From Escherichia phage vB_EcoS_AHS24: a stretch of 46,440 nucleotides of DNA. Below are positions 14,754 to 44,552 of this stretch, in pieces. The stretch's first letter is position 1. The number at the start of each line of letters is the position of its first letter. The position numbers and the translations under genes are program-made. The stretch lies in sequence record NC_024784.1; one strand, 5' to 3'. The notes under the pieces were generated by a model. The model was not told where the DNA came from. It was given only the letters and a program-made list of their open reading frames with translations, and ran no database searches.

Positions 14754-15104
14754 ATGGCATTAGAAACATTTCGCTGGTGTACTCAGGTTCAGGGCGGCTC
14801 AGCGAGCTTCACTAACGCGAATAACGTTAGGGTTGTTAGCTTTGGTAATGGTTATGAGCAAAGGGGAACTGGAGGTTACAGAACCAACAAACGCACTTAC
14901 AACATGACCTACACCAACACCAACTGGAAGGAAGTGTTAGACTTTTGTTTTGCACATATCATCACCCCGTTCGCATGGACGACTCCGCAGGGTGAGCTTA
15001 AGCTTTTTGTTGTTGCTCAGGACAGCATCAGCGTCACACCGAATACCAGGGAAGTGCAGACTGTATCAATGCAGTTTGTAGAAGTTTTCACCTCAATGCA
15101 GTAA
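14754..15104 (+). CDS. minor tail protein (lambda M-like)
   Basis: 116 aa immediately after tape measure. Confidence 0.55.
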   Translation: MALETFRWCTQVQGGSASFTNANNVRVVSFGNGYEQRGTGGYRTNKRTYNMTYTNTNWKEVLDFCFAHIITPFAWTTPQGELKLFVVAQDSISVTPNTREVQTVSMQFVEVFTSMQ

Positions 15105-15148
15105 ATAGCACGAATTGCTAAAGACAAAACTCAAGGATGAGTTATTAT
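15103..15148 (+). promoter_or_regulatory. promoter cassette copy (motif + 22 bp + TATTAT)
   Basis: AAATAGCACGAATTGCTAAA at 15103..15122; leader TTCATCGAGACGAGA follows; upstream of moron 15204. Confidence 0.6.
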
Positions 15149-15203
15149 GTATTCATCGAGACGAGATCGATAAACAAACAAAACAAACAACGAGGATTTA
15201 AAC

Positions 15204-15398
15204 ATGACTAACTTCCCTAAAGCTCAATTCGTACTGGTTTTCTTCCACAACGGCAAGCCTTTCGCAGAGACGATTGATAACACTGGTGATACACCAATGG
15301 TATACACTGGATACCATGACGTGTGGAATGAGCTTTCAGATGAGGATATTTCTTATTACACATCTAAAGCATCAAAAATTATCACTAGTGAAGATTGA
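15204..15398 (+). CDS. hypothetical protein (moron in tail module)
   Basis: 64 aa with own promoter cassette upstream and terminator downstream. Confidence 0.5.
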   Translation: MTNFPKAQFVLVFFHNGKPFAETIDNTGDTPMVYTGYHDVWNELSDEDISYYTSKASKIITSED

Positions 15399-15417
15399 TG
15401 TAAATTGAGATAAACTA

Positions 15418-15438
15418 AGACCCTACTGGGTCTTTTTA
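15418..15438 (+). terminator. intrinsic terminator
   Basis: AGACCC-tact-GGGTCT + T-run, after moron. Confidence 0.7.
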
Positions 15439-15451
15439 TTGGAGAAATATT

Positions 15452-16219
15452 ATGGCAACGCCATTAAGCACTAAGTTCGAGAATCAATTACAAAGCTTGT
15501 TCCCTGGTGAGGTTGTCACGTTGATTGAGGTTGACGGAGGAAAGTTTGGTGCACCAGTTTACCGCTTTCATGGGGAGAATATCAGCTATACCCCAGAAGA
15601 AATCATGATGGCGCAATCAACAGGCCAGCCCCTGCCAGCAAAGACAATTACTTTCCGTGGCGAAGAGTACGGCGCAAGGCCTTTTGGAATTCAGGGTATT
15701 AACATGACTTCTGACGGCAAGGCAAACAAGGTGACTCTGGTTGTATCCAACGTTGACCAGAACATCTCGGCGCTTATCCGCGCTTACAACGGACTTGTTC
15801 AAGCAAAGGTTACTATCTGGATCACGCTTCGCGAGAATATTAATGAAGATGGCACCATTGCTGATGGGGATTATCGCAAGCTGGTTTACTTCATCGAACG
15901 ACCTAAGCAGGTAGATTACAATACGGCGTCGTTTGAACTAACTAGCCCAATGGATATGGATGGTATTTACATTCCAGCACGACTGGTTCAGTCAGTTTGT
16001 TATTGGGCGCAGAGAGGACTTTACCGCTCAGGGAATGGATGTGACTATATGGGTGATAGGTATTTTGATAAAGACAACGTGCCTGTATCTGATCCATCAC
16101 AAGACTTTTGTGCCGGGACGGTTAGCGCTTGCCGGTTAAGGTTTGGTGAGAATAACCAACTATCATTTGGGGGTTGCGCTGCTGCAAGCCTGCAAGCGAA
16201 AGCCAACCAACAGACTTAA
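15452..16219 (+). CDS. minor tail protein (lambda L-like)
   Basis: 255 aa, synteny M-L-K-I-J. Confidence 0.6.
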   Translation: MATPLSTKFENQLQSLFPGEVVTLIEVDGGKFGAPVYRFHGENISYTPEEIMMAQSTGQPLPAKTITFRGEEYGARPFGIQGINMTSDGKANKVTLVVSNVDQNISALIRAYNGLVQAKVTIWITLRENINEDGTIADGDYRKLVYFIERPKQVDYNTASFELTSPMDMDGIYIPARLVQSVCYWAQRGLYRSGNGCDYMGDRYFDKDNVPVSDPSQDFCAGTVSACRLRFGENNQLSFGGCAAASLQAKANQQT

Positions 16220-16229
16220 GGGGGTATTC

Positions 16230-42608: not shown

Positions 42609-43124
42609 ATGAGTAATACAATTCGTGAAGCAAACCCGACACTTGGCGACCTGGTGCGGCACCTTGTTAAGATGGCTCTTAATTCAGAGGATGGAAGCGT
42701 AACAGTTCCCGTTAAGTTGCTTTACAAGAATCTTTACGGAGAAATTGATAACGACTATGTAGCAGCTGACTTTAGACCTGGCGGCAAATATTCACTTCCA
42801 AAGCTTAAGGCTTCCTATGTTTCAAATACAGCCAGCAGAATGCAGGAAGTTAAAGACGCAGATAAGCGCGCAAGGTTCTCTTGTGGAGAGATGGAGTATA
42901 ATGGTGATGAGCATTATTGCGTAAAAATCACAATGGTCAACGGTGCTGTTAAGAATGGAACCCGAGCTAAGACAAACAGTCAATTAGAGGAGAAAGCGGT
43001 AAGCGAGTTTAAAGCTAGGCTACTTAAGCTTTCCCCCAGCGTAGCAGGAATGAGTGGAGATGAACTGAAGGGTGCGGTAGCTATGATTAACGCATATCAG
43101 GAAATGATTAAGGAGACTAAATAA
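42609..43124 (+). CDS. hypothetical protein, first gene of plus-strand early block
   Basis: 171 aa, GAGAGGAG RBS. Confidence 0.55.
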   Translation: MSNTIREANPTLGDLVRHLVKMALNSEDGSVTVPVKLLYKNLYGEIDNDYVAADFRPGGKYSLPKLKASYVSNTASRMQEVKDADKRARFSCGEMEYNGDEHYCVKITMVNGAVKNGTRAKTNSQLEEKAVSEFKARLLKLSPSVAGMSGDELKGAVAMINAYQEMIKETK

Positions 43125-43684
43125 TGTTTGATTTCAACGAGAATAAGTTAACTGATGACCAGGTGATGGAAGTCGCCAGGCAAGATAACCTGCCGCCACT
43201 TCGTGTGGCAATCAGTACTAATGGATACCGCCAATCATTCAATTTCTGGCCCAGCGCCGAAGAGATGCTGTGCGTCAAGTTGAGCCACAAATACGGTGTC
43301 GTAGTGAGCAGGATTAGCCGCCAGGGCTGGAATGGAGTGGTTGGCATTCGATCTCTATACGAGGCAATCCGAAAGGTCCAGCCATTCGTCGGGCGCGAAG
43401 GGATTATGCATGACCTGACAAATAACATCATCCCAGAATTACAGGAGGCGGGAATTGTTTGCCTCATTGGCGATAAGATTTATGTGCATCCGGCCCTGGT
43501 TGGGATGGATAAGGACGACGTGCAAAACTGGTGCAGTCAGTACCGATCCGACGCGCCACGCTCACACTACGTGCCACCGCAAACAACAATCCATGGCTAT
43601 GATGCCGATGAGGTGGGGAAGGCCATACAGTTCTACCGGAAAGCGAAAGCTCTCCTGAATGGCGAATATAGCACAAATTGCTAA
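43124..43684 (+). CDS. domain-deleted paralog of the 529-aa P-loop protein
   Basis: N-terminus MFDFNENKLTDDQVMEVARQDNLPPLRVAISTNGYRQS and C-terminus GVVGIRSLYEA...CLIGDKIYVHP match both ends of ORF 38127..39716; lacks P-loop middle. Confidence 0.55.
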   Translation: MFDFNENKLTDDQVMEVARQDNLPPLRVAISTNGYRQSFNFWPSAEEMLCVKLSHKYGVVVSRISRQGWNGVVGIRSLYEAIRKVQPFVGREGIMHDLTNNIIPELQEAGIVCLIGDKIYVHPALVGMDKDDVQNWCSQYRSDAPRSHYVPPQTTIHGYDADEVGKAIQFYRKAKALLNGEYSTNC

Positions 43685-43711
43685 ACAATAAATTGGGTAG
43701 TCAGCTATGAT
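43665..43711 (+). promoter_or_regulatory. promoter cassette copy
   Basis: AATATAGCACAAATTGCTAAA + 22 bp + TATGAT + leader AACCAAACGAGAGGA; motif encodes C-terminal YSTNC-stop of paralog gene. Confidence 0.6.
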
Positions 43712-43742
43712 TACCCTATCAACCAAACGAGAGGATTAAGAG

Positions 43743-43976
43743 ATGATCGTAATTAACCTATCTGAAAGGCAAGCCAAAGAGATTAAAGCAGTACTAATGC
43801 ATTGCATTAACCGAAAGCTATTTAGCTCGTCAGAATCGCTTACAGAGGTTTTGGAGCAGATTCGAAATCAGGAGTTTGAAGATATACTGCCGTGGGAAGA
43901 GGACTTGACCTGGCTTGAGTACGAGCATATTTGCACGGCACTATCAGGATGCCAACTGGCTAGCCAATACAAGTGA
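43743..43976 (+). CDS. hypothetical protein
   Basis: 77 aa downstream of cassette leader. Confidence 0.45.
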   Translation: MIVINLSERQAKEIKAVLMHCINRKLFSSSESLTEVLEQIRNQEFEDILPWEEDLTWLEYEHICTALSGCQLASQYK

Positions 43977-44214
43977 CAATCTACGAACACACGTTCAGCA
44001 GCAGGGGTATCGATATGCTCCTGCATTACGTAGACGAGAGATACGCCATGTTAATGCAGAAGACGCATGGCGGCACTATAACGAGGGTTGAGATATGTAC
44101 TACTATATAATTCCTGTTGAAGATTTGATTCGTGATTACAGTCACGGCTACATTGCTGTATGCGACGCTGATACAATGACTGCATATGTTGACTTTGATT
44201 TTGAGGATTGAGAT

Positions 44215-44478
44215 ATGAGTAAGTACGAAAAAGAGATTATTGGCCTGGACGGCACCAAGACTACGGTTGATGTATATCGCGTCATCGCAGCATTTGGCGT
44301 AACGGACCCGGCACTACAGCATGCCATCAAAAAGGTACTGTGCAGCGGCATTCGAACACGACATAAGGATTACCCTACCGACATCAATGAGGCCATTGTA
44401 TCGCTTCAGAAGGCCATAGAATTCCATGATCAAAGGGGCGCACATGTCCAGGAACTTATAGACAAGTATCGCAACTGA
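44215..44478 (+). CDS. hypothetical protein
   Basis: 87 aa, GAGG RBS. Confidence 0.45.
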   Translation: MSKYEKEIIGLDGTKTTVDVYRVIAAFGVTDPALQHAIKKVLCSGIRTRHKDYPTDINEAIVSLQKAIEFHDQRGAHVQELIDKYRN

Positions 44479-44506
44479 CCTAAACATTATCTTGATAGCT
44501 GGAGCA

Positions 44507-44552
44507 ACAAATAGCACAAATTGCTAAACATCCATCGCAAGGATGCGTTACC
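44507..44552 (+). promoter_or_regulatory. promoter cassette copy
   Basis: AAATAGCACAAATTGCTAAA + 22 bp + TACCAT + TTTATCGAAATGAGACGAGG. Confidence 0.55.

Follow-up and report, generated by a model that had tools for sequence, protein, structure and literature searches.

A repeated promoter-like cassette in the T1-like phage AHS24 and its match to the host MarA/SoxS/Rob binding site

The window analysed here is the whole 46,440-nucleotide sequence of Escherichia phage vB_EcoS_AHS24 (NC_024784.1), a virulent T1-like coliphage (Rogunavirus, Drexlerviridae), and the element in question is a promoter-like cassette whose aligned copies share a fixed order, namely a 20-bp box, a spacer, a TAnnnT hexamer, a CATCGAAACGA-like leader, a Shine-Dalgarno sequence and a start codon. 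The genes behind the cassettes comprise a tail-module moron, a lipoprotein (Cor-like) gene, the Rha gene, the Erf and SSB genes, primase, helicase and blocks of small genes, and no head or tail gene lies directly behind a full cassette in the window, as the initial annotation, which had placed the repeat before non-structural genes only, also found. By megablast, positions 30000-36500 are 100% identical to Escherichia phage bV_EcoS_AHP24 and 99% identical to Rogue1. The deposited annotation of the near-identical AHP24 holds 5 sigma70 promoters and 18 terminators, none of them promoters or terminators at cassette sites, and the genome paper for these phages, in which promoters were called by a neural-network tool, does not mention the repeat.

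Searching the window for AAATAGCACNNNTTGNTAAA at up to 2 mismatches returned 15 matches where 0.06 were expected by chance, and none of 100 shuffled windows contained 15 matches (0/100), so that the repeat is real and lies where the initial annotation had put it, to within 1-2 nt. Its sixteenth copy, at 22668, is a genuine if degenerate cassette (ATAGCACGAATAATCAAAAC, an 18-bp gap, TATAGT), and 15 of its 16 copies have the hexamer, the exception being 35675, as it had said. The count of 16 holds for the copies that were listed, and a seventeenth before the primase gene had been missed (box 30138-30157, minus strand, with CATAAT 19 bp on). In total the window has 17 cassettes including the degenerate one, 16 of them with the hexamer, together with two box-like sites lacking a -10. 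The spacing had been given in two ways, of which the 22 bp counted from the TAGCA-N5-TGCTA core is correct, whereas the 21-23 bp counted from the 20-mer is 19-21 bp when measured; from the end of the 20-bp box as used here, the gap is 18 bp in ten cassettes, 19 bp in five and 17 bp in one. The CATCGAAACGA leader recurs in most copies at up to 2 mismatches, the strand of the cassette is in every case that of the downstream open reading frame (ORF), again as annotated, and the ORF begins about 20-100 nt away, the distance from box to start codon being mostly 71-85 nt. The copies are listed below, with scores in bits from the weight matrix described further on.

Cassette 1, 15105..15155, plus strand: box 15105-15124 (ATAGCACGAATTGCTAAAGA), 18-bp gap, TATTAT at 15143-15148, start (+1) near 15155 (CA), 17.6 bits; before a 64-residue ORF (15204-15398) within the tail module, which is followed by a terminator.
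Cassette 2, 22262..22313, minus strand: box 22294-22313, 19-bp gap, TATAGT at 22269-22274, +1 near 22262, 17.2 bits; before the lipoprotein (Cor-like) gene, which starts at 22228.
Cassette 3, degenerate, 22671..22721, plus strand: box ATAGCACGAATAATCAAAAC, 18-bp gap, TATAGT at 22709-22714, 11.4 bits; the B half of the box is TCAAAA, as in micF, and the target is a Rha-family gene (22817).
Cassette 4, 25139..25189, plus strand: box ATAGCACGAATAGCTAAAAC, 18-bp gap, TATAGT at 25177-25182, 16.1 bits; before the Erf-like recombination gene and ssb.
Cassette 5, 30106..30157, minus strand: box GAAGCACGAAAAGCTAAAGA at 30138-30157, 19-bp gap, CATAAT at 30113-30118, 15.0 bits; between the regulator and primase genes, where T1, TLS and Kp1513 have homologous cassettes, with the hexamer in the loop of a terminator hairpin (30101-30128) that a T run follows.
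Cassette 6, 30620..30669, plus strand: box ATAGCACTTTTTGTTAAACA, 17-bp gap, TATTAT at 30657-30662, 16.5 bits; before the helicase gene.
Cassette 7, 33016..33066, plus strand: 18-bp gap, TATAGT at 33054-33059, +1 near 33066 (CA), 17.6 bits; gene start 33091, with the stop codon of the gene upstream inside the box.
Cassette 8, T variant, 33701..33751, plus strand: 18-bp gap, TATATT at 33739-33744, 16.5 bits; gene start 33775.
Cassette 9, T variant, 34387..34437, plus strand: 18-bp gap, TATAGT at 34425-34430, 16.5 bits; followed by ATG 34459 and a phosphoesterase-like gene (34542-35675).
Box only, 35675..35712, plus strand: ATATCACTTTTTGTTAAAGC without a -10 hexamer, 11.8 bits; its 3' end is a terminator-like hairpin, AAAGCC-ATTCGA-GGCTTTT.
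Cassette 10, 35939..35989, plus strand: 18-bp gap, TATAGT at 35977-35982, inside a perfect 10-bp hairpin, AGATGGGGTA/TACCCCATCT (35969-35992); gene start 36015.
Cassette 11, 39962..40013, minus strand: box ATGGCACTTTTTGCTAAAGA, 19-bp gap, TATATT at 39969-39974, 17.9 bits; gene start 39930.
Cassette 12, 40160..40211, minus strand: box ATAGCACTTTTTGCTAATGA, TATATT at 40167-40172, likely start ATG 40129; the spacer holds a GC-rich hairpin, ACCCGC-TTCG-GCGGGT, running into TATATT and a T-rich tail, a terminator nested in the promoter.
Cassette 13, 41123..41173, minus strand: 18-bp gap, TATATT at 41130-41135, 17.6 bits; gene start 41095.
Cassette 14, 41957..42008, minus strand: 19-bp gap, TATAGT at 41964-41969, 17.9 bits; gene start 41936, the first cassette of the leftward small-gene block.
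Cassette 15, A variant, 43668..43718, plus strand: core GCACAAATTGCTAAA, 18-bp gap, TATGAT at 43706-43711 within a 7-9 bp hairpin, 18.6 bits; gene start 43743.
Cassette 16, A variant, 44511..44561, plus strand: 18-bp gap, TACCAT at 44549-44554, 18.6 bits; gene start 44587.
Box-like site, 17565..17584, plus strand: ATGGCACAAATGGTTAAACA, no -10 at 18 bp, 16.0 bits.
Box-like site, 42505..42524, minus strand: ATCGCACGTTATGCTAAATT in a large intergenic region without an adjacent -10, 15.6 bits, of uncertain status.

The box or its A-rich 5' edge often supplies the stop codon of the gene upstream (15105, 33016, 33701, 34387 and others), either as TAA or TAG in AAATAGC or as TAA in GCTAAA, and coding sequence and promoter are thus packed without a spacer. 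Some deposited or mechanically called start codons fall inside or upstream of the predicted promoter, such as that of AHP24_57 (about 40194, inside the box of cassette 12) and that of AHP24_45 (34418, between box and hexamer), and the cassettes suggest later starts at ATG 40129, ATG 34459 and ATG 30700 (30700 as against 30649). At 30608-30700, the start codon and Shine-Dalgarno sequence of a regulator gene on the minus strand abut the box of the helicase cassette in all 5 of 5 phages compared, and the plus-strand TATTAT of cassette 6 shares an AT-rich stretch with an overlapping TATAAT on the minus strand, which has TTTAAT 17 bp upstream of it. The predicted regulator and helicase promoters are back-to-back and would not be occupiable together, and because of this overlap the regulator mRNA would have to run through the box.

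The full phage consensus, ATAGCAC-(GAA/TTT/AAA)-TTG(C/T)TAAAAC, in short ATAGCACnnnTTGYTAAAAC, reads as a consensus marbox (also soxbox or robbox), the asymmetric recognition site of MarA, SoxS and Rob, host activators of antibiotic and stress responses that are monomeric AraC/XylS-type proteins with two helix-turn-helix motifs. The marbox has been defined as gcannwwntgnnaaa (PMC12052159) and, over 20 bp, as an A site GCAC plus a B site CAAA (PMC9178005, PMC9638938). Among 80 canonical phage copies from five genomes, 67 fit gcannwwntgnnaaa with 0 mismatches and the other 13 with 1 mismatch. The 20-nt consensus of Martin et al. 1999 is reportedly AYnGCACnnWnnRYYAAAYn, with which the phage consensus agrees at 19 of 20 positions, and the odd position, A19, is also found in micF. 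Variation between copies falls on the degenerate positions of the marbox and keeps to the bases permitted there, position 10 being only A or T and position 14 being C or T in 96%.

An independent measure came from a weight matrix built on 85 Salmonella chromatin immunoprecipitation (ChIP-seq) sites bound by MarA, SoxS, Rob or RamA, transcribed from PMC10268841 and with no phage repeat as input, which was run over every 15-mer on both strands of the window, the ChIP sites themselves being scored leave-one-out. The top 13 15-mers in the window are all cassettes, at 16.1-18.6 bits, while the ChIP sites score 10.7 bits at the median, 16.4 at the 90th percentile and 18.4 at most, and 19 window sites reach at least 14 bits compared with 0.7 in shuffles. 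In addition, cassettes 15 and 16 have a core (GCACAAATTGCTAAA) that agrees letter for letter with a SoxS site mapped by ChIP on the Salmonella plasmid pSLT, the best-scoring SoxS site listed. The initial annotation had proposed a dimeric activator on a palindrome, which does not fit, since the conservation is asymmetric, the boxes take only one orientation and the variation is marbox-like: G4 is conserved at 100% whereas its symmetry partner C14 is 60% C and 36% T, and the conserved positions A1, C7, T11 and A17-18 are not symmetric, C7/T11 and A1/A17 not being complementary. The partial dyad GCA-N5-TGC is also present in host sites shown by ChIP.

The position of the box relative to the hexamer is equally marbox-like. 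Class II mar/sox/rob promoters carry a forward box over the -35 region, centred at -41.5, without a recognisable -35 (PMC12052159, PMC10268841, PMC9638938). The E. coli K-12 micF promoter, read directly, consists of ACAGCACTGAATGTCAAAAC, 18 bp, TAGAAT and a +1 seven nt on, its box being centred at -41.5. A gap of exactly 18 bp separates box and hexamer in 70 of the 95 copies found in 5 phage genomes. Among 428 unique copies drawn from 85 related sequences (1.7 Mb), 296 have this gap and 378 have one of 17-19 bp, as against a 1% background chance of an equally good hexamer at the 18-bp offset; a motif search in related phages, one of the checks proposed earlier, has returned the same geometry. 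The orientation is forward in all 17 window cassettes and in all 367 canonical copies from 85 sources, with GCAC distal and TAAA proximal to the hexamer. The hexamers resemble the sigma70 -10 (TATTAT, CATAAT, TATAGT, TATAAT, TATATT, TATCAT and others) with A-11 and T-7 invariant, 85 of 367 cassettes (23%) have a TGn extended -10, and a conserved C-A six and seven nt past the hexamer is a preferred -1/+1 pair. With the start at that A, the box extends from -50 to -31 with its centre near -41, where class II activators bind, as had been proposed, and GCAC occupies -47 to -44. This coincides with the positions G-47 and A-45 that Rob contacts in a cryo-electron microscopy complex (PMC9178005). Start codons lie a median of 32 nt past the hexamer, leaving a leader of about 26 nt.

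A usable -35 is missing from this arrangement. Strings resembling a -35 are limited to the tail of the box (TAAACA, AAGACA) with 3-4 of 6 matches, and the box itself is too distant, as had been pointed out: taking TTGCTA as a sigma70 -35 would require a spacer of 21 bp, which is too long, and no other -10 occurs 17 bp downstream. In the early half of the window, canonical -35/-10 pairs show no enrichment (39 found, 35.4 ± 6.2 expected). For TLS, only three canonical promoters were reported (PMC11447400). Taken together, the lack of enrichment and the three promoters of TLS leave the cassettes as the sole plausible promoters for these genes. Box, orientation, position and a -10 without a good -35 are thus all found as in a class II marbox promoter, and that the cassette is a promoter with an activator-type site near -41 seems much more secure than the host-factor mechanism.

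As to that mechanism, we consider it somewhat better than an even bet, at a probability of roughly 0.55, that host MarA, SoxS and Rob (RamA in Klebsiella) drive the cassettes as class II marbox promoters. The 20-bp box at about -50 to -31 would stand in for the -35 hexamer and would be read by a single molecule of a host AraC/XylS-type activator of the MarA/SoxS/Rob group, or also of RamA in Klebsiella, Rob being the likeliest reader in unstressed cells on account of its constitutive synthesis. Once bound, the activator would touch the alpha C-terminal domain and region 4 of sigma70, in the manner seen in the solved micF complexes, and thereby set RNA polymerase on the TAnnnT hexamer 18 bp downstream, and transcription would start at the conserved A 7 nt past the hexamer and run through a leader of about 26 nt (AUCGAAACGA...GAGG) to the start codon. 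About 17 such promoters would serve the non-structural genes, i.e. those for early, replication, recombination, exclusion and moron functions, and since the activator preexists in the cell, they could fire on DNA entry. The host-factor reading is preferred partly because it explains a time-zero early start in a phage without its own polymerase. That MarA, SoxS or Rob binds and activates, and which of them acts, we infer from sequence. A phage-encoded MarA-like protein was considered and set aside, as no ORF resembling MarA, SoxS or Rob turned up in five phage genomes by tblastn and profile search (all E > 0.1; the MarA query agreed with PDB 1BL0) and the model of the phage's Cro-type regulator has only one helix-turn-helix (HTH).

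Several points weigh against a host reader. Cassettes are present in 'Pseudomonas phage Motto' (ON843697.1, 18 copies) and 'Vibrio phage Vc1' (NC_054898.2, 15 copies), deposited as phages of P. aeruginosa and Vibrio cholerae respectively, which have 45% G+C, closely resemble the enteric T1-like phages and carry the same regulator. Of 50 P. aeruginosa isolates, 32 are reported to allow plaque formation by Motto. To our knowledge, P. aeruginosa has no orthologues of MarA, SoxS or Rob. If these hosts are correct, there is another reader or the box is dispensable; either these phages infect an unusually broad range of hosts or their assigned hosts should be verified. We had considered the Vibrio and Pseudomonas T1-like phages as possible host-range support for a host factor, but their cassettes are retained and they give none. 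Unstressed cells contain little MarA or SoxS, and much of their Rob is inactive or sequestered, yet T1 grows very fast in ordinary broth. We also know of no requirement for rob, marA or soxS reported in decades of T1 genetics, though three-fold redundancy would keep such a requirement hidden. Furthermore, the phage regulator gene adjoins a box, has a canonical-looking promoter of its own and could bind the partial dyad, and the literature searched yielded no binding, start-site or expression data, transcriptomics and start-site mapping included, for any T1-like phage. It is on account of the inferred binding, of Motto and Vc1, of the scarcity of MarA and SoxS and of sequestered Rob that our estimate is no higher.

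The strongest of the alternatives, possible though in our view improbable, is essentially the model of the initial annotation, in which a phage protein, like MotA in T4, is made first from its own sigma70 promoter and as a dimer activates a delayed-early or middle regulon. The candidate is the Cro-type protein of 157 residues encoded at 30134..30607 on the minus strand, which might instead be a separate switch protein; it is the only phage DNA-binding protein common to all box-carrying genomes examined, and its gene occurs in 829 Drexlerviridae records (all those matched) and in every box-carrying genome tested. The gene is divergent from a cassette with the box against its ribosome-binding site, a layout typical of autoregulated phage regulators, and its own minus-strand TTTAAT-N17-TATAAT promoter is legible; a phage reader would also account for the cassettes in phages deposited on Pseudomonas and Vibrio hosts. 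Its predicted fold is that of a Cro-type DNA-binder. Pfam gives a weak P22-Cro/YdaS HTH, a single one, and the AlphaFold model (predicted local distance difference test score, pLDDT, 89) matches only small Cro proteins over about 65 residues, the best such match being weak (E 0.014, template modelling (TM) score 0.73 over 65 residues), and no AraC-type fold. With a single HTH in the model, the protein would have to bind TAGCA-N5-TGCTA as a dimer, whereas conservation of the box is asymmetric and marbox-like, the dyad is broken in the T variant (36% of copies) and the box is strictly oriented to the -10 hexamer. In addition, conservation of the regulator is lowest in its predicted recognition helix, with a mean top-residue frequency of 0.49 compared with 0.80-0.83 in the flanks among 45 homologues and frequencies of 0.18-0.42 at positions 66, 70, 71, 73 and 74, whereas the box, with its 17 conserved base pairs, is unchanged in 86 related sequences whose regulators are 48-100% identical. 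A phage reader would also leave the coincidence with the host marbox and the micF spacing unaccounted for at every specified position, and the genes expressed first would need another promoter type, which is not enriched in the window. The other HTH protein that had been put forward as a reader, Rha (22817-23446), is missing from all six of the other box-carrying genomes compared (T1, TLS, Rtp, Kp1513, Vc1 and Motto) and is therefore not the general reader; neither of the two proposed proteins is supported.

Rather less probable is that the cassettes are activator-free, -35-independent promoters whose box acts as an enhancer, by bending DNA or in the way of an UP element, or as an oriented site ('stoperator') at which a repressor would turn early units off. 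The TLS paper (PMC11447400) puts forward a stoperator, an enhancer or an UP element as possible readings. Basal activity is plausible, as the hexamers are near consensus and 23% are TGn-extended, and box-like copies without a -10 lie over late promoters or 5' leaders, where a bound protein would block, namely at 17565-17584 in the window and at the terS, J and major-capsid promoters in T1, TLS, Vc1 and Motto. An UP element, however, is expected to be an A/T tract (-59 to -38) that the alpha C-terminal domain touches, unlike the G/C-containing core of the box with its invariant G4, C5, A6, C7 and G13; a stoperator is expected to have no fixed relation to a -10, whereas here the 18 bp recur in about 70% of 428 copies over the 1% background; and a fixed helix face with a centre at -41 is what contact between an activator and RNA polymerase requires.

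The box-like sites over late promoters have features of their own. The site at 17565-17584 overlaps the TAGAAT hexamer and start region of a putative late tail-fibre (J-like) promoter, has equivalents in T1 and TLS, and by this overlap predicts occlusion, not activation. Upstream of the major capsid gene in T1, TLS, Vc1 and Motto, the spacer of a canonical TTGACG-N16-TATTAT promoter is made up of a box in reverse orientation, and in T1 and TLS forward boxes cover the -10, start site or leader of terS and of the tail-fibre gene J. The sites are as follows.

T1: 15067-15086, 18831-18850, 8362-8381 and 25021-25040.
TLS: 15023-15042 and 24908-24927.
Vc1: 5711-5730.
Motto: 5708-5727.

The same binder could thus activate early promoters and hold down some late ones. 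Here we speculate on a timer: if the host-factor reading is true, replication would raise the roughly 20 boxes per genome to thousands against a fixed host pool of activator, whose titration could switch early genes off and late genes on.

The units of structural genes seem to start with a design different from that of the cassettes, in which an intrinsic terminator directly precedes a near-consensus -10 with neither box nor -35 (10925-11010, 17520-17565 and 7300-7330; for example ATGTTATAAT at about 10960 and GTGTATAATG at about 7315). Between the divergent cassettes 2 and 3, a 300-bp non-coding and very AT-rich stretch (22330-22640) with TATTATTATTATTATATATAT-like runs and several short repeats may be an origin or another regulatory region.

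Many cassettes also contain an inverted repeat around the hexamer, with the 5' arm in the spacer and the 3' arm formed by the discriminator, as in GGGGTA/TACCCC, AAGGCCA/TGGCCTT, AGGGGAA/TTCCCCT and TGTTGCCGTTA/TAGCGGCAACA. As a control we used chimeras joining the 5' half of one cassette to the 3' half of another: a stem of at least 6 Watson-Crick pairs is found in 39% of 367 unique cassettes and 18% of chimeras, the mean RNA folding energy is -9.9 kcal/mol in cassettes and -6.5 ± 0.15 kcal/mol in chimeras, and the ratio of G.T to A.C mismatches in stems is 31 to 6 compared with 210 to 154 (p = 0.0012). There is also a stepwise series of arms, from TGGTTGGCC/GGCCAACCA to .../GGTCAACCA and then to TGGTTGACC/GGTCAACCA (G-C to G.U to A-U), which together with the excess of G.T indicates that pairing is favoured in the sense-strand RNA, where both arms occur together only in transcripts read through from upstream. 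Repeats enclosing the hexamer are seen at 35969-35992 and 43695-43716 in the window, in T1, TLS, Rtp and Kp1513, and in the other relatives generally; the two in the window are its only strong ones (-17.2 kcal/mol and z -7.5 for the first, z -4.3 for the second). Most hairpins of this kind are followed by AUCGAAAC and not by a U run. The terminator form, a GC-rich stem-loop plus U run, is present at 30101-30128 and 40171-40188, both on the minus strand. The former sits at the junction of the regulator and primase genes, where a true terminator, found likewise in T1, TLS and Kp1513, has the hexamer in its loop, while a GC-rich hairpin wholly within the spacer and running into the T-rich hexamer (40167-40188) is the terminator nested in a promoter listed above. 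This suggests that the cassette also ends, processes, stabilises or insulates the transcript from upstream. An N4-type hairpin promoter or DNA cruciform, with the centre of the hairpin near -13, was rejected, because the excess of G.T over A.C favours one strand as RNA and the phage annotation holds no gene for a virion RNA polymerase.

It could be argued from these hairpins that the cassette is mainly an RNA-level signal for processing, termination or stability, with the TATAGT-like hexamer as a conserved loop, since arms that differ among cassettes stay complementary within each, mismatches are skewed as above and some hairpins with T runs score as terminators. We regard this as very unlikely, as the hairpin is absent or trivial in most window copies and in 60% overall whereas box, gap and hexamer are nearly universal, the hexamer varies as a sigma70 -10 (TAnnnT) and not as a fixed loop, and the box, which corresponds to a DNA-binding site, is not part of the hairpin. 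The RNA structure makes better sense as an additional function superimposed on the promoter, which it does not displace, because box, gap and hexamer are far more constant. The only Rfam family in the window, with none at the cassettes, is tRNA; this gene (45859-45931, 58.8 bits) is the tRNA-Arg reported for these phages. Finally, a -24/-12 element for sigma54 or a phage-modified polymerase is scarcely credible, for although TAGCAC...TTGC superficially resembles TGGCAC-N5-TTGC and one copy reads TGGCACTTTTTGCT (box 39994-40013), the blocks are 2 bp closer (CAC-N3-TTGC) than the invariant sigma54 spacing, AG replaces GG in all but two window copies, a sigma54 start would lie within the spacer, 25 nt before the conserved C-1/A+1, the annotated genes of the phage showed neither an enhancer-binding ATPase nor anything sigma-like, and the conserved sigma70-type -10 at its fixed distance would be left without a role.

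Although T1 belongs to the classic set of seven T phages, its promoters are not known to have been defined, and the genome papers of the family offer a handful of sigma70 promoters and an unexplained repeat. The class II marbox reading provides a concrete and cheaply testable account of how the non-structural genes are transcribed. In its widest form, which we hold to be improbable, the Drexlerviridae would have no early promoters of their own type and would instead, through some 17-20 optimal marboxes per genome, tie into the MarA/SoxS/Rob(/RamA) stress circuit of the host. If that is true, early expression and infection success should be higher in hosts with the mar/sox/rob/ram regulon on, i.e. 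under bile salts, salicylate or oxidative stress and in multidrug-resistant marR, soxR or ramR mutants, and such phages would preferentially exploit antibiotic-tolerant cells. Should host MarA, SoxS, Rob or RamA drive the cassettes, phage expression would be coupled to the multidrug-tolerance regulon, which bears on phage-antibiotic combinations, on therapy with Klebsiella and E. coli Drexlerviridae, for which ramA- or marA-overexpressing strains are predicted to be better hosts, and on phage behaviour in the bile-rich gut. The cassettes would, in addition, be a set of very strong natural marboxes for activator studies. If the host-factor reading is false, it would in turn have to be explained why a phage-specific factor mimics a host site so precisely.

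The initial annotation was not aware of any description of the element, and one exists. Re-annotating TLS in 2024, German, Kropinski, Misra and colleagues (Phage 2024, PMC11447400) described 21 occurrences of a direct repeat of 21 nt, aaATAGCACnnnTTGnTAAAA, with A, T and G subtypes, oriented with transcription and about 76 nt before start codons, which is said to occur in T1, Rtp and Rogue1 too; the paper offers a stoperator, an enhancer-binding site or an UP element and assigns no function. The repeat itself is therefore not new, and the TLS repeat is the AHS24 element, having the same consensus, A/T/G subtypes (AAA/TTT/GAA), orientation and start distance. What the TLS paper lacks are the 18-bp link to the -10, the marbox match, the conserved start site and the hairpin. 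A link of marboxes or Rob to T1-like phages was not found in a literature search that did not include the T1 (2004) and Rtp (2006) genome papers.

Among known systems, the stoperators of mycobacteriophage L5 are likewise many asymmetric, transcription-oriented sites in short intergenic gaps, but they bind the prophage repressor, stall elongation and have no fixed relation to a -10, whereas AHS24 is virulent and its site is locked 18 bp from the -10. The middle promoters of T4, which depend on the MotA box and AsiA-remodelled sigma70, likewise form a many-promoter phage regulon in which an activator box replaces the -35 while the -10 is kept. The MotA box contains TGCT, has its centre at -30, roughly 12 bp away from the -10, and is recognised by phage-encoded MotA together with the co-activator AsiA; unlike it, the AHS24 box is near -41 and 18 bp from the -10 and matches a host activator site, and no MotA or AsiA homologue was noticed in the annotation. 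The closest likeness is to the class II mar/sox/rob promoters (micF; lpxC P2, lpxL P1 and rfaY P1), with which the phage cassettes share the 20-bp asymmetric box with GCAC and YAAA, the forward orientation, the centre at about -41.5 instead of a -35, the 18-bp gap and the want of a usable -35, and the micF box is identical to a phage box (the T1 copy at 39976) at 16 of 20 positions with an equal gap. They differ in that the host has one degenerate marbox per operon whereas the phage has 17-20 near-consensus copies in a 46-kb virulent genome, that the phage boxes score at or above the best host sites, and that only the phage has the conserved A0, A1-T2-A3 and T11, the transcribed leader, and the hairpins and nested terminators at the -10. 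By its sequence, then, what is new here appears to be a known promoter class, that of the class II marbox, with an unexpected owner.

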